This document shows, in pieces, positions 93 through 64,000 of a DNA stretch of 64,000 bases. The translations under genes were made by a program, and so were the position numbers. This DNA comes from an uncultured Candidatus Saccharibacteria bacterium (GTDB lineage Bacteria > Patescibacteriota > Minisyncoccia > Phycocordibacterales > Zambryskibacteraceae), in NCBI GenBank assembly GCA_964349945.1, contig CAYGIH010000001.1, positions 227,718 to 291,717 on the forward strand, in the 5' to 3' direction. The notes below the pieces were generated by a model. That model worked only from the letters and a program-made list of their open reading frames with translations, had not been told where the DNA came from and searched no databases. Numbering within the stretch: the first letter of the stretch is position 1; each line of letters opens with the position of its first letter.

Positions 93-959
93 TTATATCC
101 CCTCTTTCTTTAATTCTTCAACTAATTTCTTTTGTTCCTTAGATAATTTTTCTGGAATGTTTACTTTTATACGAACATAAAAATCACCACGGCGATTGAC
201 CGAGTGTGGGACACCCTTACCATTCACACGGAGAATGGTGCCCGTATTTGTGCCGTTAGGAACCTTGAGTTCTATTCGTCCATCTAGTGTATCTAGAGTC
301 TTTGTAGCCCCTAATAAAGCGTCTGTAAGGCTTATAGTGGTGTCCATAATGAGGTTATAGCCCTCTTTTCTTATATGTGGGTGCTTTTGGACAAATATTC
401 TAATAAAAAGGTTGCCTGGGTTTCCACCTTCAATAGTTTCTCCGTAGCCCGGCATTTTTATCATTTGACCGTTTTCTATACCCGCAGGTATTTGAATGGT
501 GACTTCCTTCTCTTTAACTGCCTTACTGTTTATAGAAATCTTTCTGGTGATACCAAAAATTGAATCATGAAAATTAATTTCTATATCTACCTGCACATCT
601 CTGCCTCTCTTCACTCTTCTACCACCAAAGATAGATGAGAGTATGTCTTCGATGTTGCCATTATCAAATCCTCCAGCATTTCCAAAACCAGAGAAATCAA
701 AACCAAAATCATTTGGATTAAATCCTCCTTGGAATCCTCCGCCCATGTTTGGACCAGTCGAACCGAATTGATCATACTGGGCCCGTTTATTCTTATCAGA
801 TAAAACACTGTACGCCCCACTTACCTCTTTGAACTTGGCTTCATTGCCACCCTTTTTGTCTGGATGATGCTCATGAGCAAGCTTTCTAAAAGCTTTTTTT
901 ATTTCTTCTTCACTCGCATTCTTAGAGACTCCTAAAATTTTGTAGTAATCCTTTGACAT
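93..959 (-). CDS. dnaJ: DnaJ-family co-chaperone with J domain, G/F-rich region and C-terminal domains; no Cys-rich zinc finger (type II, CbpA-like)
   Basis: N-terminal 'DYYKILGV...HPDK' J-domain with HPD motif, then a Gly/Phe-rich linker. No CxxCxGxG repeats. Lies downstream of dnaK in a grpE-dnaK-dnaJ order. Confidence 0.85.
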   Translation of the reverse strand: MSKDYYKILGVSKNASEEEIKKAFRKLAHEHHPDKKGGNEAKFKEVSGAYSVLSDKNKRAQYDQFGSTGPNMGGGFQGGFNPNDFGFDFSGFGNAGGFDNGNIEDILSSIFGGRRVKRGRDVQVDIEINFHDSIFGITRKISINSKAVKEKEVTIQIPAGIENGQMIKMPGYGETIEGGNPGNLFIRIFVQKHPHIRKEGYNLIMDTTISLTDALLGATKTLDTLDGRIELKVPNGTNTGTILRVNGKGVPHSVNRRGDFYVRIKVNIPEKLSKEQKKLVEELKKEGI

Positions 960-8905: not shown

Positions 8906-10042
8906 CTATAAGGCAATGTTTGAGTATGCTGCCAAAATAGAAATTCTCTCATCAACTCTAACTTCGTCGATATAACCTGAAATTAATTTTACTAAATTAC
9001 TATTTTTCCCTACTTGTTCAACCTTATGATTATTGAATGTCCCAGATAAAAGTGTTTTTATTATTGATTCATTTTGTGCTGAACCTATTAGAAATATTTT
9101 ATAAGGGATAACTTGATCCTTAGGTATCTCGCTAGTCACTCTTTCCCATGAACTGGTCCATTCAGTTTCAATATCCCTGAACAATTCCTCAAATTTCCTT
9201 CTGGTATCACTATTAAGCGCTCCATCAGAAAATAGTGAAATATATGAATATGCGATCTCTAAAGGAACATTCATTTTCTTTTGTATGGCTCTGGCTATAT
9301 AGGCAGGTCCGAATGGTAAGGATATAGAAACCAGCGGATACGATTTTTTAACCAAAAGCAAATCAAGAGCTTCATTAGACATATTTACCAATAAAGCTGA
9401 ATGCATATTTTGAAAGGCTCTGGTAAAAACTTTCATAAATACAAACATGAAATTTTCAAATATCATATCGTTTTTAACTCCAATCAAATTAGTAATCTCA
9501 CGTTCTATATTATCTATTGAAGATTTTTGACCAGCGTACATCATAAATTGGATTTCTAAATCATTGGTCTGTTGTGATGCAAAAATATTTGATTCATAAC
9601 CATTTAAAGTAATGTTTGTAATCTTTGAACCAAAAATTTCACTTTTTTCTATATATCTCTTTTCCAAATCATTTTTAAAATTCTCTTCCTCCTCTTTCAA
9701 AATATTTGATATATGCTTTCTGTTTACTAAAAAAGGTTTTTCTGATTTCTGTACATAAGTTCTTAAACGCGATGTTATCCAGGGAGAAGAAAAAGAGACC
9801 AATACTGTATCTACACTAGAGTTTCCTATTTCTTGAATGATTCCTTTGATGTTTCTTAGAAGAGCCTTTTCTATAGAGTTCGAATCAGGTTTATCTTTTA
9901 AATAAAGAGGCACTCTTAAAGTATTAAGAACTAAGGGTATATTTCTTGGCTGTAATTTTATAAGGCCTGCACCCACTGATCCAGAGGATATATCTAATAC
10001 GAGAACAGTTTTAGCAGAACTGAATTTAGACCATAATTTCAT
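8906..10042 (-). CDS. Hypothetical actin-fold (ASKHA) ATPase-like protein, PilM/FtsA-like N-terminus, possibly degenerate
   Basis: N-terminal 'TVLVLDISSGSVGAGLIKL' resembles the phosphate-1 motif of PilM/FtsA/ParM. The second phosphate motif is not clearly conserved. Confidence 0.3.
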   Translation of the reverse strand: MKLWSKFSSAKTVLVLDISSGSVGAGLIKLQPRNIPLVLNTLRVPLYLKDKPDSNSIEKALLRNIKGIIQEIGNSSVDTVLVSFSSPWITSRLRTYVQKSEKPFLVNRKHISNILKEEEENFKNDLEKRYIEKSEIFGSKITNITLNGYESNIFASQQTNDLEIQFMMYAGQKSSIDNIEREITNLIGVKNDMIFENFMFVFMKVFTRAFQNMHSALLVNMSNEALDLLLVKKSYPLVSISLPFGPAYIARAIQKKMNVPLEIAYSYISLFSDGALNSDTRRKFEELFRDIETEWTSSWERVTSEIPKDQVIPYKIFLIGSAQNESIIKTLLSGTFNNHKVEQVGKNSNLVKLISGYIDEVRVDERISILAAYSNIAL

Positions 10043-51718: not shown

Positions 51719-53227
51719 TTGGAAAACAAAAAGCAAGTTATTCTATCTAAAACTAATTACATTCTCTACAGAGATTGTCCGAAGAATACTTGGCTCAAAA
51801 TCCATAAACCAGACGTTTACTTCAAGTCAGAGCTTTCTGATTTTGAAAAATCAATTATAGAAACAGGAAACGAAGTAGAATTAGAAGCTAGAAAACTGTT
51901 CCCTACTGGTGTTCTCATCGAAGGACGTGATGAAGACGCTCAAAAATTAACGGCAGATTATATTAGAGAAAAACAGCCAACATTCTTTCAGGCTGTTTTT
52001 TCTATTAATGACTATCTGGCAGCTACAGACATTTTGAAATTTCATCCAGAAACTAATTCGTATTCTATATACGAAGTGAAAGCTTCAAATAGTGTAGATT
52101 TAAAGGTTCATATTCATGACCTGGCCTTTCAGGTTAATGTCTTACGACAAGTTGGGTTAACAGTCACAAGTGCCGTTGTTATCCATTTGAATCCAGAATA
52201 TGTAAGAGATGGAGAACTTGAGATTACTAAGCTCTTTCAGGAAACAAATGTTACTAAACAGGTCGAAGAAATTTCTATGGAGGTTTGGGATGAAATGAAT
52301 TTTGCCTTAAAGTATTTGAGAGATGAGAATGAACCCACTGGTCCATGTTCATGTCTACGCAAGGGCCGTTCGAAACACTGCACTACATTCCACTACTCAA
52401 ACCCTCAAGTACCTGATTATAGTGTCCATGATATAGCCAGAATTGGTTTGAGTAAGGTTAAACTTACTGAGCTTGTTGACTCAAACATCTTTCACATCAA
52501 AGATGTGCCTAGAGAATTTGAACTATCAGAAACCCAGAGAAATCAAATTGATTCATATGTTTTCGACAGAGTTATAATTGACCATGACAAAATCAAAGAA
52601 GAATTTGAAGATTTAGTGTTCCCTCTTTATTTCCTAGACTATGAGACCTTCCCCGCTGCCATACCACGCTTCGATGGATTTTCACCCTATCAGCAAATTC
52701 CCTTTCAATATTCTCTACATGTTGTAGACAAGCCAGAAAGTGAGCCAAAACATTTTGAATTTCTCTATACAGAAAACGGTGACCCTAGTCACTCCTTTGT
52801 AGAGTCAATGCAAAAACACATAGGTAAAGTTGGAAGTATAATTGTCTGGCACAAAAGTTTTGAATGTAGCAGAAATAAGGAATTAGCCACAAGAATACCC
52901 GAAGCAAAAAGTTTCTTAAATGACATTAATAACCGCACTTATGACCTTGAGGATATCTTCAAGAAGCAATACCATGTCCACAAAGACTACAAAGGTAGTA
53001 GCTCTATCAAGAAAGTTTTACCAGTTCTTGCTCCAGATTTGTCATATAAGAACCTAGAAATCCAAGAAGGCGGCAGCGCAACTCAAGCATGGAACAAAGT
53101 TGTCACTGCAGAATTAGAACCATTTGAACGGGAAACAATTATAGATAACCTTAAAAACTATTGTAAGTTAGATACTTACGCCATGTATGCTATTTGGAGA
53201 GAACTCAATAGTCTAATATCCTCTTAG
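51719..53227 (+). CDS. PD-(D/E)xK (Cas4/RecB-like) nuclease fused to a C-terminal DUF2779-type RNase-H-like exonuclease domain
   Basis: N-terminal '[10 protein letters not shown]' followed by 'IYEVKAS' ExK core. Central Cys cluster '[12 protein letters not shown]'. C-terminal 'LYFLDYETF' and '[13 protein letters not shown]' DEDD-like motifs. Confidence 0.6.
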
Positions 53228-54457
53228 ACGGTTTATTTTATCGTGCTGACGAATCTTCTCATGAGCCTTGGCTTCGATTTGTCGAATACGCTCTCGAGTG
53301 ACACCAAAGACTTTTCCCACTTCCTCTAGTGTATGAGTATATCCATCAAGGAGGCCGTGGCGCATTTCAAGAATTTTACGTTCCTTTGGAGGAAGATCAT
53401 TAAGGATTTCTCTCACTTGGTCCTGAATAATTCTACGAGAGGATTCCATATCTGGAGAAAGAATTTTGTCATCAGCGATGAAATCTCCGAGCTTGCTCTT
53501 ATCATCTCCGTCATCCCCCACTGGGTTCTCCAAAGATACAGTTGATTGATCAATCTTTTCAATTTGATAAATCTTATCTACATCAAGGTTCATCTCTGTG
53601 GCAATTTCCTCCTGTAGAGGCTCACGACCCAAATCTTGTGTTAAACGTCTTACAACTTGTTTATATTTAGCAATAGTTTCCACCATATGCACTGGCACGC
53701 GGATAGTCCTAGATTGGTCGGCCAAAGCACGTGTAATAGCCTGTCTAATCCACCAAGTGGCGTAAGTAGAGAACTTATAGCCCTTTGTCCAATCAAACTT
53801 GTCTACGGCCTTAAATAGCCCCAAATTACCCTCTTGGATGAGGTCTAGGAGAGTTAGATCAGGTGAACGGTTAGCGTATTTCTTGGCTATAGAGACAACC
53901 AAACGGAGGTTAGCCTTGGCTAGGAGGTTTTTAGCATCCTCATCTCCGGCTTCAATTCTCTTTGCCAGTTCCTTCTCCATATTCCCAGAAATAAGTGGGT
54001 ACTGCCCAATTTCCTTGAGATACATTTGGATAGAATCGTATGCAGAATCAGACTTTCCATAAGAATATTTTTTACCTGTTTCCTCTACGGGCATTTCTAG
54101 TAATCCTCCACTTTCAAGTACATCAATGCCTAATATGTGAAGTTTGGTGTATAGCTCGTCTAAGAAAATAATATCATTTTCAATAGTTGGAAATTCCTTT
54201 AATATTTCATCATAAGTAACAAATCCTTTTTCTTTACCCCTTGATGTTAGCTTATTAAGCTTATGTAGAATATCCAAATCTTTTTTAGAAGTAGAAACCT
54301 TTTTAGTTTTCTCAACTTTTTTTGAAACCTTTTTGGCTTTAACTTTTTTAACAACTTTTTTCTTTATGCTTTTTGCCTTTTTGGAAACCCTTTTAGCCAA
54401 CTTTTTAGCGGGCTTGGTTTTCTTATTCAACTTTTTTATTTTTTTATTTTTGGGCAT
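53213..54457 (-). CDS. rpoD: Primary RNA polymerase sigma factor RpoD with Lys-rich (histone-H1-like) N-terminal extension
   Basis: Region 2 '[40 protein letters not shown]'. Region 4 '[22 protein letters not shown]'. N-terminal about 55 aa is K/A/V-rich. Confidence 0.93.
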
Positions 54458-54468
54458 TTATGTATATA

Positions 54469-56061
54469 TTATACGAGTTTTCGTTTCTCCACATCTCTTT
54501 TCTTATCTATAGCATGAATTTTTCTATTTATCTCCTCATCATCACCTCCACTATGCAACTCATCTACTAATCCTTGCCGTTCTTCATCTAGAACGGCAAT
54601 ATTTAGACGAATCTTGAGTTCTTCTTCCTCTTTTATTAAAGCTTCCAATTCTTTTGACTCAGGAGCAAACTCCTTTTGCCATTCTAGAACTTCTTGCAAA
54701 CGGGCTTCAATTTTTTCCCTTGGAGAAACTATGAGTGAAGAAATTTCTTCTGTTTCTATATTACTTTCAACAAGATTCTCAATCTGAACACTTTTTACCT
54801 TTCTCAAATCGTCCCAAATTATTTCTTCTTTTATTCCTGATTTTTTTGAAATCAAAGAAATAAAATGTGATTTCTCAATCGTGCTCTCGATTAAACTCAC
54901 AAGTGGCAAGATATTTCTTTCTATTAGTTTGCCAACTTTTCTTTTGTCCTTCTCCTCTCTAATAATTCTATCTAACGCATACTCTATTGCATGCTTTGCC
55001 TCTCTAAGAATGTCCTTCCAACTATCTGGTGACTTATTAGCTTGATCTGCGGGGTCACTTCCATCTGGGAGCTTTGCTATCTTTACCTCCATTCCTATAG
55101 ATAGTCCCAAAACAGCACTTTTTTCAGCAGCCTTTTCTCCAGCCATATCCCCATCAAAGGCAAGTAACACTCTATTTGAAAGCTTTTTAAGTCTTTCTAA
55201 ATGCTCCCTAGTAAAGGCTGTGCCAGATGAAGCCACTGTATTCTTGACTCCAACCTGATGAGACAGAACCAAATCAATCTGTCCTTCTACTAAGACAGAG
55301 TAATTCTTCTTGCGAATTTCATCTTTGGCCTTATCTAAACCATATAAAACTTCGCTTTTGTTAAAGAGTACTGTCTCCGGGGTATTTAGATACTTTGCCA
55401 AAGCATCTTTCTCCAAAGATCTACCAGAAAACGCGATAACCCTACCTGTTGAATCAAAGATTGGGAAGATAATACGGTTTCTAAAAACATCGTAAGCCTC
55501 TTTGCCCAAATCTTCTCCTTGTTTAATGAGTCCGGCCTTCAATAGTAATTCTTTGGAGTACCCAAGTGACTTGAGATACTCAAACGCGCTCCGCCACTCA
55601 TCGAGGGCGAATCCTAATCTCCATTCTTTGATTGATTCTGAATTAATACCTCTGGATTTTAAATATTCCAAGGATAATTCACTGTTTTTTAAGTTATCTT
55701 CAAAGAATAGAGTGACAGCGTTTAAGACTTCATAGAGCTTTTCTTTCTCTTCTTTTGATTCACCACTTTTACCCCTGTATTCCTCAAGTTCCACTCCCGC
55801 TCTTTCGGCCAAAGATTTTAAAGCGGTTTTAAAATCCACACCTTCCATCTCTTGAACAAAAGTAAATATGTCACCTTTAGCTCCACAACCAAAACAATAA
55901 TATCCTTGACGGTTTTGAGACACTGAAAAAGATGCTGTTTTCTCGTTGTGGAACGGACATTTACCCTTATAGTTTTTGCCCGCTTTCTCGAGTTTAATGT
56001 AGGAACCTAATACTTCGACTATATCTAGTCGATCTTTGATGGTGTCGACTGTTCCTCGCAT
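54469..56061 (-). CDS. dnaG: DNA primase DnaG
   Basis: CHC2 zinc finger 'CPFHNEKTASFSVSQNRQGYYCFGCG'. TOPRIM domain ('EGQIDLVLSHQ', 'LAFDGDMAG'). Confidence 0.92.
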   Translation of the reverse strand: MRGTVDTIKDRLDIVEVLGSYIKLEKAGKNYKGKCPFHNEKTASFSVSQNRQGYYCFGCGAKGDIFTFVQEMEGVDFKTALKSLAERAGVELEEYRGKSGESKEEKEKLYEVLNAVTLFFEDNLKNSELSLEYLKSRGINSESIKEWRLGFALDEWRSAFEYLKSLGYSKELLLKAGLIKQGEDLGKEAYDVFRNRIIFPIFDSTGRVIAFSGRSLEKDALAKYLNTPETVLFNKSEVLYGLDKAKDEIRKKNYSVLVEGQIDLVLSHQVGVKNTVASSGTAFTREHLERLKKLSNRVLLAFDGDMAGEKAAEKSAVLGLSIGMEVKIAKLPDGSDPADQANKSPDSWKDILREAKHAIEYALDRIIREEKDKRKVGKLIERNILPLVSLIESTIEKSHFISLISKKSGIKEEIIWDDLRKVKSVQIENLVESNIETEEISSLIVSPREKIEARLQEVLEWQKEFAPESKELEALIKEEEELKIRLNIAVLDEERQGLVDELHSGGDDEEINRKIHAIDKKRDVEKRKLV

Positions 56062-59000
56062 ATGAGTTTTTCTTTATAGCCTCCCTTAAACCCTGTACCC
56101 GCTGGAATCATACGACCAATAATAACATTCTCCTTCAAGCCTAATAATTCATCCTCCACACCTCTAATCGCAGCTTGTATAAGAACACGAGGGGTATGTT
56201 GAAATGAAGCAGCAGAGAGGAAACTTGCTCTTGAGAGAGAAACCTCGGAGATACCCATGATAACTGAGTCACCCTTTGCTTCTTCTTTGTTTTTACCTTT
56301 AGTTTCTTCATTTACAGCCATATAATCTGACATCTCAACGATATCTCCTCTGGTAAATGTTGTTTCTCCAATACTTCTAATTTTTCGTCTTGAGAACATT
56401 TGGCGAACAATGAGTTCAATATGCTTGTGAGACACAGCTGCACCTTGTAGTTCATAAAGTTTGGAAACTTCATGAATAATATAATTTTCTGTCTTCTCTC
56501 GACCAGCATATCTAAACAATTCATCTAAGTCAGCAGATCCATCTGTTAGGAAGTCCCCCTTTTTCACTTCTTGACCAACCTTTACCAAAATAGTTCTCAT
56601 CACACTAACCCCATATTCATTATCAAGTTTTTTTGTTTTCTTCTTTTCCTCTTTTATCTCTGGAGTAATGACAATTGTTCTATCGCTTCCATCAATTCTG
56701 ATTTCAGAAATAATACCATCCATATGAGCAATAGATGCTGGATTCTTTGGCTTCCTCTTCTCAAAGATTTCTTCAACACGAGGCAAACCAGCGGTAATAT
56801 CTCCACCAACTGAGGCGATACCTCCAGCGTGGAAGGTACGCATTGTAAGCTGTGTTCCTGGTTCACCAATAGCTTGAGCCGCGATTGTTCCTACTGCTTC
56901 TCCAAGTTCTACGATTTTGTTTGTTCCCAAATCTGCACCATAACATTTAATACATACTCCTTGGAGAGATTTACAGGCCATCGGTGAGCGAACGGCGATT
57001 GCGGGTACATTAGCTTTGTCTATAATTTCAGCATCATTCTTGGTGACAAAGTGTCCTTTCTTAAAGAGAACATTTCCATTTGAATCCACAACATCAGCCG
57101 CAAGGAATCTGCCCTTGAGAGTTTTTGTATATGGCATTTCTATTCCTGATGCAGTCATCTTGGTAATAGTTGTGAATTCTTTTGTACCACATTCTTCTTC
57201 TGAAACTATCTCGTCTTGTGCTACATCAAAGAGTCTTCGAGTTAGATAACCCGCCTTCGAGGTATTTAGAGCTGTGTCTGTGAGACCTTTTCTTGAACCG
57301 TGAGTAGTGATGAAATATTCAAGCGGAGTCAAACCCTCCTTATAACAAGAAAGAATTGGGAATTCCAAGGCTTCTCCAGAAACATTTTGAATAATACCTA
57401 TCACTCCAGCCATCTGGTTAATCTGACCCAGGGATCCTCTGGCTCCTGATTTAATCAAGTCGTGGACAGAACCTTTGTCTCCTAAAGTTGCAGGGATAAG
57501 AGCTTCTACTTCACCCTTAACTCCTTGCCAAGCTTCGACTGATTTCTGGATACGTTCACGTTCAGAAATAAGTCCGTCATTAAATTGATCAACAATAATC
57601 TTTATGCTTTCGCGTCCAGCCTGAATCAATCCCTTCTTTTCTTCTGGAATTTTAACATCAGTTAAACTCCATGTAGTTCCTGATTGAGTAGCGTATTTGA
57701 AGCCAAATGATTTAATTCGATCAATAATTGGAGGAATATTCTCTAAAGTATAATGTTCTATCAAATCATCAATGAGAGTTCCCATTTTTTTATTGTTGAT
57801 TTCATAGTTTTGGAACGGATAATCAGCTGGCAAAACAGCATTGAAGAGAAGACGCCCAACAGAGGTCTCAAATATTTTGCCTTCAAAGACTTTGTACTTT
57901 GGAGAATCAGTAGGCATGACATGAATCTTGGCTTGAAGACTTATGGCATCAAAATCTTTCAAAAGAATCGCGCTATTAGGACTAGAGAAATATTTCCCTT
58001 CTCCTTTTTCACCTGCCACAATTCTAGTCGCCCAATAACTTCCTAGAACTAAATCCAATTTATCGATTGAGAGAACGAGATTTCCGTTACCTGGTTTAAG
58101 TATATTTCTATCTGCAGCCATGATAAGTCTCGCTTCAGCTTGAGCCTCATCTGAAAGTGGTACATGAACAGCCATTTGGTCTCCATCGAAGTCCGCATTG
58201 AAGGCAGTACAAACAAGAGGGTGAAGCTGAATAGCATTCCCTTCAATCAAAACTGGTTGAAAAGCCTGAATACCAAGTCTGTGCAGAGTAGGAGCACGGT
58301 TTAAGAGCACATATTTTCCTTTAATTATTTCTTCAAGAATAGCCCATACTTCAGGAATGGCATCTTCTATTAATCGTCTTGCTCCAGGAATATTGTATGC
58401 AAGTTCTTTTTTTAGAAGTTCAGAAATTATGAAGGGTTTAAACAATTCAAGAGCCATATGTTTAGGCAACCCGCATTGATGAAGATGAAGTTCTGGACCC
58501 ACCACAATTACCGAACGTCCAGAATAATCTACACGCTTTCCTAATAAGTTTGCACGGAACAATCCTCGTTTACCTTTGAGGTTATCTGAAAGAGACTTTA
58601 GGGGACGACGCTGAGATTGATTACCTGAAGCTTGTCCATGTCGAATTGAGTTATCAATAAGTGCGTCTACTGCTTCTTGAAGAATTCTTTTTTCATTACG
58701 GAGAATAACATCAGGAGCGCTGATATCCATAAGTTTCTTTAGACGATTGTTTCTGTTTATTACTCGTCTATAAAGATCATTCACATCGCTTGTTGCATAA
58801 CGCCCTCCATCCAAAGGCACCATTGGACGTATGGCTGGAGGAATAACTGGAATACGTGTAAGGAACATCCATTCAGGACGTATGCCCGCGCGCTTCATCC
58901 ACTCTATAGTGCTTGAACGTTTATGCAGTCTTGAGATTTCAGTAGCTGGTGCTGTTTCTATTTGAGTCTCGATTTCCTTGAGCAACTTGTCCATATCTAC

Positions 59001-59687
59001 CGCCTTCAGAATATCGAAGATTGCCTCTGCACCAATCCCCGCTTCGAAGATTGTTGAATATTTCATGGAGAAACGATGATATTCAACTTCATCAAGAACT
59101 CTACCCAATTCAATTGATTCAATATCTTTTTTGGCAGCAAGGGCAAGTTCCTTTAGAGCGTCTTTTGACTTTTCATCTTGAAGAGACTTTGTTTTTGATT
59201 TAAATTCTGAATCAAGATCTTTTAGAACTCTAGTTTTCTCTGCTTCTGAGACCGCGGTCACAATATATCCAGCGAAGTAAATTACCTTCTCAAGATCAGC
59301 AACTGGAATACCCATTACTAATGAAATTCTTGAAGGTACATTTTTAAGGAACCAAATATGTGCGACAGGAGAAGCGAGTTCAATGTGACCCATTCTCTCT
59401 CGACGAACAATTGAGCGAGTTATCTCTACCCCACATTTCTCACAAACAATCCCCTTATATCTTATACCTCTATATTTACCGCAATAACATTCGAAATCCT
59501 TGTCTGGACCGAATATTTTTTCATCAAAGAGACCGTTTCTCTCACTTCGTTGAGTTCTATAGTTGATGGTTTCTGGTTTGGTAACTTCACCGAATGACCA
59601 CTCCTTGATTCTCTCTGGAGACGCCAACTTGATAGAAATCAAATCGAAATCATTTGTGTCTATGTTTTTGTTTCGTGGGATGTTCAT
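56025..59687 (-). CDS. rpoC: DNA-directed RNA polymerase beta' subunit
   Basis: 'NADFDGDQMAVHVPL' active-site motif. 1220 aa. Its 3' end overlaps the dnaG start by 37 nt. Confidence 0.97.
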   Translation of the reverse strand: MNIPRNKNIDTNDFDLISIKLASPERIKEWSFGEVTKPETINYRTQRSERNGLFDEKIFGPDKDFECYCGKYRGIRYKGIVCEKCGVEITRSIVRRERMGHIELASPVAHIWFLKNVPSRISLVMGIPVADLEKVIYFAGYIVTAVSEAEKTRVLKDLDSEFKSKTKSLQDEKSKDALKELALAAKKDIESIELGRVLDEVEYHRFSMKYSTIFEAGIGAEAIFDILKAVDMDKLLKEIETQIETAPATEISRLHKRSSTIEWMKRAGIRPEWMFLTRIPVIPPAIRPMVPLDGGRYATSDVNDLYRRVINRNNRLKKLMDISAPDVILRNEKRILQEAVDALIDNSIRHGQASGNQSQRRPLKSLSDNLKGKRGLFRANLLGKRVDYSGRSVIVVGPELHLHQCGLPKHMALELFKPFIISELLKKELAYNIPGARRLIEDAIPEVWAILEEIIKGKYVLLNRAPTLHRLGIQAFQPVLIEGNAIQLHPLVCTAFNADFDGDQMAVHVPLSDEAQAEARLIMAADRNILKPGNGNLVLSIDKLDLVLGSYWATRIVAGEKGEGKYFSSPNSAILLKDFDAISLQAKIHVMPTDSPKYKVFEGKIFETSVGRLLFNAVLPADYPFQNYEINNKKMGTLIDDLIEHYTLENIPPIIDRIKSFGFKYATQSGTTWSLTDVKIPEEKKGLIQAGRESIKIIVDQFNDGLISERERIQKSVEAWQGVKGEVEALIPATLGDKGSVHDLIKSGARGSLGQINQMAGVIGIIQNVSGEALEFPILSCYKEGLTPLEYFITTHGSRKGLTDTALNTSKAGYLTRRLFDVAQDEIVSEEECGTKEFTTITKMTASGIEMPYTKTLKGRFLAADVVDSNGNVLFKKGHFVTKNDAEIIDKANVPAIAVRSPMACKSLQGVCIKCYGADLGTNKIVELGEAVGTIAAQAIGEPGTQLTMRTFHAGGIASVGGDITAGLPRVEEIFEKRKPKNPASIAHMDGIISEIRIDGSDRTIVITPEIKEEKKKTKKLDNEYGVSVMRTILVKVGQEVKKGDFLTDGSADLDELFRYAGREKTENYIIHEVSKLYELQGAAVSHKHIELIVRQMFSRRKIRSIGETTFTRGDIVEMSDYMAVNEETKGKNKEEAKGDSVIMGISEVSLSRASFLSAASFQHTPRVLIQAAIRGVEDELLGLKENVIIGRMIPAGTGFKGGYKEKLICEEQSTPSKID

Positions 59688-59691
59688 GGTT

Positions 59692-62600
59692 TTATTCGTT
59701 AGTTGATGAAGCCTCTGGTAATACTCTCTTTTTCTTTTTTAACTCCATGTCCAAACCTAAGCCACGAAGATTATTCAAGAGCACATTAAATGATGCTGGT
59801 GTATTCGGAAGAGGAATCTTTTCTCCTTTCACTATGGCATCAAAGGCGGCTGAACGTCCTGTAATATCATCAGACTTTATAGTAAGCATTTCTCGTAGAG
59901 TATGTCCTGCGCCGTGTCCAAGAAGTGCCCACACTTCCATTTCTCCGAATCTCTGACCTCCATTTTGAGCTTTTCCTCCAAGAGGTTGTTGAGTGATAAG
60001 AGAATAAGGACCGATAGAACGCATGTGAATCTTGTCTTCAACCATGTGGTGAAGTTTGAGGATATACATATATCCAACAGCAATATCCTGTTCGAATTCC
60101 TCACCGGTTCTTCCGTCAAACAATTTAACCTTGCCTGATTTTTCGAATCCTGATTTGACTAATTCTTCTCTAATTTCTTCTTCTGTTGCTCCAGCAAATG
60201 GAGGCACAATAGCTTGATAATTTAGAGTGTGAGCTGCAAGCCCAAGGTGAAGTTCAAGGATTTGTCCTAGGTTCATACGTGAGGGCACCCCGAGTGGTGT
60301 GAGGATAATGTCTATAGGAGTTCCGTCCGCCATATATGGCATTTCTTCTACTGGTAGAATCCTTGAGATAACTCCCTTGTTTCCATGCCTTCCGGCGAGT
60401 TTATCTCCCACAGAAACATTTCTGAGTTCTGCTACTTGGATGTGAATTTGTTTAATGATTCCTGAATCCAATTTGTCTCCCTTTTCTCTAGAAAATACTT
60501 GAACAGAAATAATACGTCCTCGTTTTCCTCCTTCCATTCTCTTCGAAGTATCCTTTACATCACGAGCTTTTTCTCCGAATAGTGAGCGAAGCAATCTTTC
60601 TTCTGGAGTAAGTTGAGACTCGCCCTTTGGAGTAATCTTGCCTACTAGGATGTCTCCTGGACGAACTTCTGCACCAACACGGATGATACCGTCCTCAGCA
60701 AGGTTCTTGAGTTTTGATTCACCAACATTTGGGATGTCACAGGTAGTGACTTCTGGTCCAAGTTTTGTCTCTCGAACGTTTATGGTGAAGTCTTCAATGT
60801 GAACAGAAGTAAACTTTGATTCTTTAACCAATCTTTCAGAAAGAATAATGGCGTCTTCATAGTTTGCTCCTGACCAAGACATAAAGGCTACTAATATATT
60901 TTGTCCAAGTGCCATTTGACCATGGTCTGAGGTAGAAGTATCTGCGAGCACATCACCTTTCTTTACTTTTTGCCCAATTTCTACAATTGGTCTCTGATGA
61001 AAAGCGGTAAAAGTGTTGGTCATAGAGAAGTTTACGAGTTTGAAATTAATCTTTTCTCCCTTGGTATTCTCCAAGACTATTTTCTTACCATCTACAGCAA
61101 CAACTGTGCCTGCTTCTGGAGCAATAACTAATCTACCTATATCTCGAGCAGCCTTTTCCTCTATACCTGTAGCCACAAGTGGTGCTTCAGGGATAATACA
61201 AGGAGTACCCTGTTTCTGCATGTTAGAACCCATGAGTGCTCGACTCGCATTGTTGTGGTTCAGGAAAGGAATCATTGAAGTCACAATAGAAAAAGCTTGA
61301 TTTGTAGCCACATCAATATAATTAACATGACTTCTTTCTACTGTAATAGGAGTGCCTTTGTGTCTGACTTCTACAGTATCTGGAATAATGTGACCACTTG
61401 GATCAATTGGAGTTGCTCCGTGGGCAATATTATGTGCTTCCTCTTCAAGAGCATTGAGATATTTTATCTCCTTTGTTACCTTTCCATCCTTCACAACTGC
61501 ATAAGGTGTCTCTATCATGCCAAAGTCATTTACACGTGCATATGAAGCGAGACGCAAAATAAGACCGATGTTTGGTCCTTCTGGAGTTTGAATAGGACAA
61601 AGACGACCATAATGAGATGGGTGAACATCACGCACTTCATAACCAGCACGAGCACGAGACAAACCTCCAGGACCTAGAGCTGAAAGTGTTCGAAGGTGTT
61701 CGAGCTCTTCTGTGGCATTTGTTTGTTGCATGAACTGAGAGAGTTGGTTCGTAGTGAAGAACTCCTTCATTCTGGCTTGAAGTGGTTTAGGAGAAATAAA
61801 GTTCACAGGCAAAGTCACATCCGTATCAATAGTGGACATCCTGTTTTGAATATTTCTCTTGATTTGAGCCATACCAACTCGGATTTTTTGCTGGAAAAGT
61901 TCACCGACGTATCTAACTCGTCTTGAACCAAGGTGATCTATGTCATCTTCAACTGAACCAGGAGTAGAGTTGAGCATCGCTATGTGCGACAAAATCAAAA
62001 CTAAATCTTCAATCGAAAGGGTTCTGCGCTCAATCTCTTTTGGGGTCTCCTTTAATCCAAATCGCCTTATAAAAGCGTAGCGACCAACTTTGTGTATGTC
62101 GTATCTTTCTTCATTAAAGATTGATTCGACGAATTCACGCGCATTATCTGCAGAAGCGAGATCTCCATCTCGAAGTCTTTTATGGATTTCTATACAAGCT
62201 TCATCAACATTTGTGGTATGATCCTTCGCTAGTGATTTCTCAATAAAATGCTTTGCATCAGGATAATCCTTAAATAGAGCCATTATTTTCTCATTTGTGG
62301 CTACTCCAAAGGCTCGAAGAAGAACTGTGACAGGGAATTTTCTCTTTCTGTCTATACGAACATAAATAACTCCGTCTAAATCTGTTTCAAACTCTATCCA
62401 GGCTCCACGAGCTGGGATGATTTTCCCTCCAAATGTTTTCTTGCCTTTTAATTCCTGAGAAGTAAAAAACACACCGAAAGAACGAGCTAATTGTGGAACG
62501 ATCACACGCTCGATGCCAGAGATAATAAATGTTCCATGGGAAGTCATGAGTGGGAAATCTGCCATGAAAATCTCTTGTTCCTTCTCTGTCTTCATGATGT

Positions 62601-62919
62601 GATTCTTCAAACGAATCTTCACCTTTAGAGGTGCTTCGTATGAGAGCTTCAAATCCTTTGCCTCATATTCATTTAGCTTTGGTTTCTCTAATTCAAATCC
62701 AACAAAATCAAGCTGGAATTTTCTTCCAGAGAAATCTTGAATTGATGAAAACTCCTCAAATACTTCCTTGAGACCCTTTTCTATTAACCATTTAAACGAA
62801 TCTACTTGAGAGATTACCAGGTTTGGCATCTCTGTCAGCGGTTCACGAAACTTTCCGAAAAACTTCTTCTCTCGGAGCTTCATCGTAGGATTAGCTCCTT
62901 TTGTTTTATGTATAGACAT
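59692..62919 (-). CDS. rpoB: DNA-directed RNA polymerase beta subunit
   Basis: 1075 aa with beta-subunit conserved regions ('GPGGLSRARAGYEVRDVHPSHYGR', 'NMQKQGTP'). Immediately upstream of rpoC. Confidence 0.97.
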   Translation of the reverse strand: MSIHKTKGANPTMKLREKKFFGKFREPLTEMPNLVISQVDSFKWLIEKGLKEVFEEFSSIQDFSGRKFQLDFVGFELEKPKLNEYEAKDLKLSYEAPLKVKIRLKNHIMKTEKEQEIFMADFPLMTSHGTFIISGIERVIVPQLARSFGVFFTSQELKGKKTFGGKIIPARGAWIEFETDLDGVIYVRIDRKRKFPVTVLLRAFGVATNEKIMALFKDYPDAKHFIEKSLAKDHTTNVDEACIEIHKRLRDGDLASADNAREFVESIFNEERYDIHKVGRYAFIRRFGLKETPKEIERRTLSIEDLVLILSHIAMLNSTPGSVEDDIDHLGSRRVRYVGELFQQKIRVGMAQIKRNIQNRMSTIDTDVTLPVNFISPKPLQARMKEFFTTNQLSQFMQQTNATEELEHLRTLSALGPGGLSRARAGYEVRDVHPSHYGRLCPIQTPEGPNIGLILRLASYARVNDFGMIETPYAVVKDGKVTKEIKYLNALEEEAHNIAHGATPIDPSGHIIPDTVEVRHKGTPITVERSHVNYIDVATNQAFSIVTSMIPFLNHNNASRALMGSNMQKQGTPCIIPEAPLVATGIEEKAARDIGRLVIAPEAGTVVAVDGKKIVLENTKGEKINFKLVNFSMTNTFTAFHQRPIVEIGQKVKKGDVLADTSTSDHGQMALGQNILVAFMSWSGANYEDAIILSERLVKESKFTSVHIEDFTINVRETKLGPEVTTCDIPNVGESKLKNLAEDGIIRVGAEVRPGDILVGKITPKGESQLTPEERLLRSLFGEKARDVKDTSKRMEGGKRGRIISVQVFSREKGDKLDSGIIKQIHIQVAELRNVSVGDKLAGRHGNKGVISRILPVEEMPYMADGTPIDIILTPLGVPSRMNLGQILELHLGLAAHTLNYQAIVPPFAGATEEEIREELVKSGFEKSGKVKLFDGRTGEEFEQDIAVGYMYILKLHHMVEDKIHMRSIGPYSLITQQPLGGKAQNGGQRFGEMEVWALLGHGAGHTLREMLTIKSDDITGRSAAFDAIVKGEKIPLPNTPASFNVLLNNLRGLGLDMELKKKKRVLPEASSTNE

Positions 62920-63114
62920 TAGACAGAAAATTTAAACACCACCACACTAGGTTGTGTTTCTTATAAAATTAACTATTAAGCAAAACGGAACTTTTTTAAC
63001 AAATGCGCCTTGTTATTTCCACTTTTTGCTTCGATTTGGTCATAACTAAATCGTTCTCGAAGTTGGGCATAGTATATAGACTGCATGAATATGTGTCAAT
63101 CACCTTATCCCCAG

Positions 63115-63143
63115 TTAAAAAAGAACCATCACTTGGATGGTTC
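63115..63143 (-). terminator. Intrinsic terminator on the minus strand (GAACCAUC-loop-GAUGGUUC followed by U6) between trmD and the rpoB promoter region
   Basis: 8-bp perfect stem followed on the minus strand by TTTTTT. Confidence 0.6.
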
Positions 63144-63326
63144 AATCTGTCTCTCGTGTCTGGGCTCCATGAACCCACCTCTCTCCACACATTCAACGAT
63201 AGTGTAGAGACGACCCTTCCTTACCTTCTCAGTATCGACGTATCCGACGATAAGTGTATTGGTCTTGAGCGCCACATGGTCAATCTCTTGCCAACCACAC
63301 CGCCCACAAGGAAGCTTGCTATACAT
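63129..63326 (-). CDS. GC-rich small ORF (65 aa, CxxC-containing) with strong SD, ending in the terminator; coding status uncertain
   Basis: GAGGG lies 6 nt before the ATG. 'LPCGRCGW' motif. Locally elevated GC. Occupies the slot where rplS would normally follow trmD, but it is not L19-like. Confidence 0.3.
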   Translation of the reverse strand: MYSKLPCGRCGWQEIDHVALKTNTLIVGYVDTEKVRKGRLYTIVECVERGGFMEPRHERQIEPSK

Positions 63327-63376
63327 GGTTAATCCCTCAATAACCGGGTTTGAAGAACATCTACAACTACCCTATA

Positions 63377-64000
63377 TTATTTTCTCTTTTTCTTCCACTC
63401 CTCTATTTTGGCTTGATGGCCTGAGAGTAAAATTTTAGGCACTTTATATTTCTTACCTTTATATTCAAATACTTCTGGGCGAGTATAAACTTCACTAGTT
63501 GATATTCGACTTTCTTCTAAAGAATCAAAATTACCCAAAACTCCTTCAACTTGTCTGGCCATCACATCTATCATAAGCATTGCTGGAAGTTCCCCACCAG
63601 TGAGCACAAATGGTCCGATAGAAATATCCTCCATTTTGAAAACCTTTTTGATGCGTACATCTATACCTTCGTAGCGTCCAGAGACAATAATGATGCTTTT
63701 GTACTTCTTTGAAACATTCTTCGCATATTCGTTTGTGAACTGCTTGCCCGAAGGACTTAGAAAAATAATCTTAACTGGTTTACCCTTTGCAGTCTTAACA
63801 GCTTTCTCTATAGCCTTTATAACTGGCTCGGCCTGAATAACCATCCCTGGACCACCACCAAATGGACGTCTATCTATACGGTCATGTTTATTGTCTGCGA
63901 AGTCTCTTGGATTATAAAAGCTAACCCTAAGCTTTTTGTCTTCTATGGCGCGCTTAAGAATCGACTCACCAAGGTAGGAGTCAAATGCATGTGGGAAAAG
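63377..64000 (-). CDS. trmD: tRNA (guanine37-N1)-methyltransferase TrmD, 5'-partial (continues past the window edge)
   Basis: 'GRYEGIDVR', 'ISIGPFVLTGGELPAMLMIDV' SPOUT knot motifs. The in-frame translation continues upstream to position 64000 ('RDFADNKHDRIDRRPFGGGPGM'). Confidence 0.85.
   Translation of the reverse strand, partial: LFPHAFDSYLGESILKRAIEDKKLRVSFYNPRDFADNKHDRIDRRPFGGGPGMVIQAEPVIKAIEKAVKTAKGKPVKIIFLSPSGKQFTNEYAKNVSKKYKSIIIVSGRYEGIDVRIKKVFKMEDISIGPFVLTGGELPAMLMIDVMARQVEGVLGNFDSLEESRISTSEVYTRPEVFEYKGKKYKVPKILLSGHQAKIEEWKKKRK

Follow-up and report, generated by a model that had tools for sequence, protein, structure and literature searches.

Gene content and signals of the trmD-rpoB interval

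The window (the whole 64-kb stretch of DNA analysed here) ends within trmD, the 3' part of which lies on the minus strand at 63377..>64000 and runs past the window end. tblastn aligned this part with the TrmD protein of a related locus, L001, at 90% identity over 207 amino acids, the last 61 TrmD residues being identical. Downstream on the same strand, the ORF list contained rpoB (59692..62919, assigned with RpoB relatives), rpoC (56025..59687), dnaG (54469..56061, supported by Pfam) and rpoD (53213..54457, supported by the Pfam sigma-70 match). These four genes form a same-strand cluster (53213..62919) behind a single strong promoter. Between trmD and rpoB, the minus strand carries an ORF of 65 codons at 63129..63326, with its ATG at 63326 and its TGA at 63129; the corresponding protein begins MYSKLPCGRCGWQ. 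Gene callers left this ORF uncalled both in the window's genome and in a close relative, L003.

Reading the sequence upstream of the ORF revealed a GAGGG Shine-Dalgarno sequence (63334..63338, minus strand) 7 nt 5' of the ATG, and GAGGA or AGGA was present at the equivalent place in L001, L002 and L003. A terminator scan placed an intrinsic terminator after the ORF at 63117..63143 on the minus strand, made of an 8-bp hairpin and U6. The hairpin (GAACCATC-CAAGT-GATGGTTC at 63123..63143, followed by TTTTTT) has 8 pairs, 4 of which are G-C, and a 5-nt loop, in agreement with the consensus used in the scan, which returned 3 sites where 0.6 were expected. The TGA stop of the ORF falls within the loop and 3' arm of this terminator. 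A hairpin followed by a U tract was retained in the homologues described below with another stem sequence (GACCAC...GTGGTC in L002 and L003), so that both the Shine-Dalgarno sequence and the terminator hairpin are kept in 4/4 family members with differing stems. No promoter-like site was found between trmD and the ORF. The GC content of the ORF is 0.495, against a mean of 0.373 for the 64-kb window, and only 0.4% of 198-nt windows are as GC-rich. A sequence-only reading of this DNA had drawn attention to the 65-aa ORF with its GAGGG sequence, the strong hairpin with U6 and the local GC richness; all of these features are present as it described them, and its observation is confirmed.

The trmD-rpoB junction is common in the clade and variable in content

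In the classical operon, rpsP-rimM-trmD-rplS, rplS comes last. Gene order was compared by tblastn across 80 related rpoB loci from Parcubacteria (Zambryskibacteria-like), and rpsP, a KH-domain gene and trmD were located upstream of rpoB, within 10 kb, in 54 of them. rplS followed trmD in 0/54 of the loci with trmD. With E. coli proteins as tblastn queries, genes for L19, L7/L12 and L11 were undetected in the 64-kb window and the related loci, as were those for L1 and L10 in one tblastn search of the window and related loci; the orthologues of E. coli S11 and S9, used as positive controls, were recovered from the window at 4e-26 and 2e-30. In this clade the rpsP-trmD operon has neither rimM nor rplS, and the rpoB promoter lies directly at its end. 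Since rpsP-KH-trmD stands before rpoB in 54/80 loci and rplS never follows trmD, the clade contains no vacated rplS slot. The sequence-only reading had correctly noted that rplS is missing after trmD and that rpoB is without rplKAJL upstream. Its placing of the ORF in a slot usual for rplS has to be given up for this clade, as neither rplS nor rplKAJL is present there in any of the loci compared, and so does its description of the operon context as unusual: the adjacency of trmD and rpoB is typical of the clade and unusual only by comparison with model bacteria.

The distance between trmD and rpoB varied from 63 to 9609 bp in the 54 loci with both genes (median ~800 bp), and the rpoB -35 element lies against or overlaps the stop codon of trmD in several to many relatives. 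Pfam identified DUF1761 and TSCPD proteins among the genes filling the gap; others were judged by eye to be methyltransferase-like and CapA-like proteins. In L004, L009, L014 (DUF1761), L025, L032 (TSCPD), L006 and L007 the fillers are unrelated between lineages. Judging from these comparisons of gene order, the trmD-rpoB junction appears to be a gene-insertion hotspot. Because the junction is empty or otherwise filled in relatives, the 65-codon gene would be a lineage-specific addition, and we have good confidence that this lineage gained it in a variable slot and that it does not substitute for rplS.

Homologues of the 65-codon frame and signs of selection

Three homologues of the 65-aa ORF were found, all occupying the same slot in close relatives, with 38-69% identity. 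A metagenome scan yielded L001, where the order is rpsP, KH-domain gene, trmD, homologue, rpoB and the homologue (protein P0001) has 64 amino acids and 68% identity. L003, a Minisyncoccia MAG and the closest GTDB genome, has an RpoB N-terminus 97% identical to that of the window and was reached only via its rpoB; it encodes a 65-aa homologue at the same place (~67% identity). The third homologue, P0004, is a 60-aa protein with 38% identity found by HMMER on L002, a contig of 594 bp on which the end of trmD comes first. When 1.84 billion representative proteins were searched in full with HMMER, two real relatives were returned, P0001 and P0004, along with four further matches that were judged spurious, being repeat-rich or low-complexity proteins. 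A word-index search gave nothing with the single 65-aa protein and recovered the two known relatives only with the family alignment. No additional member was detected by an HMM of the four family members in 1.4 Mb of related loci, by peptide patterns in GTDB genomes or among the viral contigs of IMG/VR.

By the Nei-Gojobori method, the three closest pairs of the small gene had dN values of 0.23-0.29 and a dN/dS of 0.16-0.20, and pairs that include L002 gave a dN/dS of 0.2-0.6; dS was about 1.5 or saturated. For the flanking rpoB, dS was 0.75-1.26 and dN/dS 0.027; the dS of the small gene is similar to that of rpoB. An early idea that the locus was a hypervariable cassette in near-identical genomes was dropped in view of this rpoB dS. 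Differences between the window and L001 were distributed over the three codon positions as 16/12/28, third positions making up 28/56, and indels among the homologues consisted of whole codons and stayed in frame. On the other strand, the window has an antisense ORF of 109 amino acids that is absent from L001 and L003. A frame that stays open in diverged relatives, together with low dN/dS and in-frame indels, is the signature of a vertically inherited coding gene under purifying selection. On this pattern, and with the bias towards third positions, the 65-codon frame is very likely a real coding gene under selection. The sequence-only reading had described the ORF as unlike L19, which stood. 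It had also treated a conserved small protein family as something that would speak against its account, and such a family does exist, as three same-position homologues under purifying selection. Within codons 6-16 synonymous sites are also conserved (6/8 codons identical), which codon preference could explain.

Two further features of the gene and its neighbourhood were observed. In all four genomes, the small gene has a higher third-position GC (0.43-0.55) than the genes next to it (0.29-0.35), a difference not expected from vertical inheritance when dS is saturated. L002 contains an extra ORF of 89 amino acids (113..382) downstream of trmD and ahead of the small CCHC gene, with its stop 2 nt before the next ATG and with no family match. 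The flanks of this ORF in L002 are present in the window and in L001, as though the ORF had been cleanly deleted. The 89-aa ORF and the small CCHC gene may form a two-gene module, the logic of which is perhaps unrelated to trmD.

Conserved residues of the predicted protein

Sixteen residues are invariant in the four homologues (P6, C7, C10, G11, W12, Q13, E14, D16, H17, K37, G38, E45, C46, G50, G51 and P55), giving the motif PCxxCGWQExDH...KG...EC...GG; the family consists of four members only, and invariance within it is of limited weight. Four conserved Cys/His residues, C7 and C10 in a CxxC knuckle, H17 and C46, would be able to hold one metal ion, and the C-terminal tail of the 65-aa protein is basic. 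Pfam gave 0 families at E<=10, and searches of NCBIfam, PHROGs and PADLOC gave no match to the 65-aa protein. The best results of a PDB profile search with the family had E = 0.65 and 2.2, both non-significant. AlphaFold2 models of the small protein were of low confidence (pLDDT 43 and 55), too low for metal-site geometry.

From the conserved ligands, we give about an even chance to the product being a small single-metal protein that binds zinc via C7, C10, H17 and C46. Motif and operon context together suggest, as a best guess that we put forward very tentatively, an RNA- or ribosome-related role in translation; membership in the operon is weak evidence for function because other lineages place unrelated genes in the same slot. 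Two more specific identities, a C4 zinc ribbon and an HNH nuclease, were rejected, as the defining features of each are missing. A C4 ribbon has two CxxC/CxxH knuckles, and here there is one CxxC, the other candidate ligands being a lone H17 and a lone C46. HNH nucleases carry a DH-N-H/N catalytic triad on a beta-beta-alpha fold; here Pfam was negative at E<=10, NCBIfam and PADLOC were negative, and the protein has no second CxxC and no conserved Asn.

The RNase P-like 13-mer lies within the coding sequence

The sequence-only reading had also pointed to a resemblance between the strand opposite the ORF and the 5' strand of RNase P helix P4. The corresponding 13-mer, GTCTGGGCTCCAT (63158..63170, plus strand), differs from the string used in that reading by one mismatch and is located inside the coding sequence, in codons F-M-E-P-R-H. 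A match as good occurred in 6/100 shuffles of the window, and the string had been picked post hoc. The 13-mer is changed in L001 and L003, at synonymous as well as non-synonymous sites. At gathering score, Rfam identified three tRNAs only in the whole window and no RNase P; at E<=10, both strands of 62850..63450 gave nothing relevant, with two chance matches to unrelated families. A bacterial RNase P RNA combines both P4 strands with a conserved core over ~300-400 nt, and here one 13-mer resembles one P4 strand. Folding z-scores of the ORF region were -1.0 and -0.5 for the two strands, no better than shuffles, and RNAalifold on the four homologous regions gave a covariation term of 0.06 without a compensatory pair. 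With Rfam models negative on both strands and the 13-mer embedded in codons and unconserved, the RNase P lead was abandoned; the resemblance is due to chance.

A promoter and a DnaA-box-like site precede rpoB

The rpoB promoter, TTGACA-17-TATACT (63071..63099, minus strand), agrees with the consensus at 11/12 positions. TTGACA and TAtAcT were found in the same place in almost all of 75 aligned rpoB-upstream sequences, a set to which one locus contributes two.

Five nt upstream of the -35 element, the plus strand carries a DnaA-box-like 9-mer, TTATCCCCA (63105..63113), which reads TGGGGATAA on the other strand. It conforms to the DnaA box sequence TTATCCACA with <=1 mismatch; in the window alone, a match of this kind is non-significant. 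Across the clade, TTATCCACA with <=1 mismatch was present in the 45 nt that precede the rpoB -35 in 40/71 loci (23 of them perfect), where ~1 would be expected. L015, L029 and L039 have two or three such sites. This recurrence suggests a candidate DnaA input to the rpoB-rpoC-dnaG-rpoD operon.

A conserved leader lies between the promoter and rpoB

The promoter is followed by a 5' leader of rpoB that is 151 nt long (62920..63070, minus strand). The leader is identical to that of L001 at 147/151 positions and to that of L003 at 146/152, whereas the third codon positions of rpoB differ by 41% and 32%, respectively. Iterative nhmmer placed a single homologous element immediately before rpoB in 74 of 82 loci (81 related loci and the window), for example at 9803..9994 in L007 and 9795..9984 in L005. 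Across the clade, the leader is ~80-360 nt long and ~10 times more conserved than synonymous sites.

A hairpin occupies the 5' part of the leader, in which CUUCGA (63057..63062) pairs with UCGAAG (63029..63034), as ACUUCG...CGAAGU. Its loop contains GAUUUAGU at 63045..63052, which is GAUUGAGU in most relatives and nearly invariant. With a covariance model of this hairpin, matches at E<0.03 were obtained in 54 loci and always at this position, the match in the window being 63027..63065. In the fitted alignment 79% of cells were paired, against <=55% when the partners were slid. The innermost pair changes from G-C to A-U in six sequences, and divergent members that fall below the model threshold keep a helix made of other sequences (ACUAUUGA/UCAAUGGU in L054, AACAUU/AAUGUU in L038, GACAU/AUGUC in L081 and CCUCG/CGAGG in L074). 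Three loci have an additional hairpin inserted in the loop. Support from covariation for the leader hairpin is moderate and not decisive.

At its 3' end the leader has a second hairpin (62935..62958), which differs in sequence from one lineage to another, and then a U-rich tract (62920..62934) immediately ahead of the AUG. When scanned strictly, 16/41 loci showed a 3' hairpin with a U tract against 2/41 shuffles, and the arrangement is more widely visible by eye. The rpoB start codon (62917..62919) is without a Shine-Dalgarno sequence and is preceded by the U-rich tract UAAAUUUUCUGUCUA, an arrangement conserved in relatives. An AAGGAG sequence 9 nt before an in-frame ATG at rpoB codon 13 is present only in the window, L001 and L003.

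Over the clade as a whole, long-range pairing between the GAUUGAGU loop and complements further downstream was not enriched (4.79 nt against 4.56 nt in shuffles). As striking single cases, perfect complements of 8 and 9 nt to their own versions of the loop were seen in L005 (13 nt before the rpoB AUG; complement ACACAAUC for loop GAUUGUGU) and in L015 (16 nt before the AUG), respectively. This suggests that in some lineages, though not clade-wide, the loop may pair with the region around the translation start. A leader peptide starting MPNFEND was considered and rejected: the likely start of transcription coincides with its ATG or follows it, and both L003 differences are non-synonymous. An Rfam cmscan of 62850..63450 at E<=10, which included Lacto-rpoB and Rhodo-rpoB, left the leader without a match. 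Collectively, these comparisons make the leader, which is absent from Rfam, a candidate for a new cis-regulatory RNA in the rpoB operon.

Discussion

The explanation that we consider probable for the region is that the 65-aa ORF is a lineage-restricted coding gene, the last cistron of the trmD operon, and that it encodes a probable small zinc-binding protein. From the sequence signals, the ORF would end an operon made of rpsP, the gene for the KH-domain protein and trmD, and the transcript would stop at the hairpin-U6 terminator, with which the stop codon of the ORF overlaps. Transcription of rpoB-rpoC-dnaG-rpoD would then start behind this terminator, from its own sigma-70-type promoter and with a long conserved leader. 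The gene would have been inserted in this lineage at a permissive junction that is empty in many relatives. Its product could be a small zinc-binder contacting RNA or a partner protein, with a role in translation or ribosome maturation like its operon partners.

The same observations were weighed against other accounts of the patch. A frame open by chance, in a region that holds only a terminator and spacer, would suit a short ORF without any recognised domain and with very few family members; we nevertheless consider it very unlikely, as the frame is open in four genomes with saturated synonymous sites, dN/dS is 0.16-0.2 in the closest pairs, indels are in frame, the Shine-Dalgarno sequence is conserved and sixteen residues are invariant. 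A non-coding RNA gene or remnant on either strand, RNase P RNA or another, with the ORF as an incidental feature, deserves next to no weight. The region is GC-rich for this genome and contains, at 63158..63170, a 13-mer that departs from the P4 5' strand at one position; yet Rfam gave no RNase P or other relevant family, either in the window at gathering score or in 62850..63450 at E<=10, fold energies are ordinary on both strands, the four homologous regions show no covariation, substitutions follow the pattern of the coding frame and the 13-mer itself is altered in L001 and L003.

Two other accounts accept the gene and differ on what it does. If it were foreign cargo in the permissive junction, its function would be unrelated to trmD and rpoB, and it could be half of a two-gene module, represented in L002 by the 89-aa and 60-aa ORFs. 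Its third-position GC of 0.43-0.55 against ~0.31 in host genes, seen in 4/4 homologues, fits such an origin, as do the unrelated genes carried at the junction by other lineages and the extra ORF that lies 2 nt away in L002, the flanks of which are kept in the window as if after a clean deletion. Searches of PHROGs, PADLOC and IMG/VR contigs were negative, however, repeats, an integrase or a transposase were not found at the junction, and a dS like that of the flanking genes fits long vertical residence. We regard this account as unlikely; it overlaps the explanation preferred here and differs from it on function only. That the protein is a small zinc subunit or regulator of RNA polymerase, analogous to archaeal Rpo12/RpoP, is an extremely unlikely reading. 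The gene adjoins rpoB, and the PDB profile search lists archaeal Rpo12/P over residues 4-22, but this match is non-significant (E = 2.2), Rpo12 is a C4 ribbon with two CxxC of which the second knuckle is absent here, a terminator and a separate promoter lie between the ORF and rpoB, and the gene is missing from ~78 relatives with the same rpoB and leader.

Returning to the lineage-restricted gene as the preferred explanation, the 65-aa protein is, taken alone, ordinary: one more lineage-restricted orphan small protein with a Cys/His motif. The gene is worth annotating because gene callers missed it in the window's genome and in L003. The rpoB promoter and leader region is more notable than the ORF that was originally flagged, and deserves follow-up. 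To our knowledge, little is known about the regulation of RNA polymerase genes in bacteria with reduced genomes. The leader, on which purifying selection is very strong in dozens of species, and the DnaA-box-like site lead to two testable hypotheses, replication-coupled and RNA-based control of the operon. In a wider view, which is possible and which we hold to be rather doubtful, the trmD-rpoB junction would be an undescribed control module for an operon encoding RNA polymerase, primase and sigma factor: it would combine the DnaA box, the promoter and a leader forming a third class of rpoB leaders, new in structure, that senses a protein or a small molecule, and the 65-aa CCHC protein would act in trans as a lineage-specific partner of the transcription/translation machinery.

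Relation to known systems

The small protein can be set beside three known families. With bL19 (rplS) it shares the place right after trmD, being likewise the final cistron ahead of a terminator; the 65-aa protein is without sequence similarity to bL19 and half its length, in agreement with the lack of any Pfam match at E<=10 and with the negative tblastn search using E. coli L19 in the window and 1.4 Mb of related loci. Archaeal Rpo12/RpoP resembles it in small size, in an N-terminal CxxC knuckle and in a weak local likeness over residues 4-22 (KxxCGxCxWxExD). This likeness is non-significant (E = 2.2), and the 65-aa gene is bacterial and separated from rpoB by a terminator. The HNH, or beta-beta-alpha-metal, finger, with the pattern CxxC...DH...GG...CxxC, has in common with the 65-aa protein a CxxCG, then a D-H and a GG pair. 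In the 65-aa protein, in contrast, the DH follows the knuckle by 5 residues and the GG comes after the last Cys, so that order and spacing differ.

Like the known rpoB leader motifs, the rpoB leader is conserved, apparently structured and found exclusively upstream of rpoB in one clade. The known motifs belong to another phylum, and the leader described here has an architecture of its own: a 5' hairpin with the GAUUGAGU loop, blocks in the middle, and a hairpin with a U tract at the AUG.
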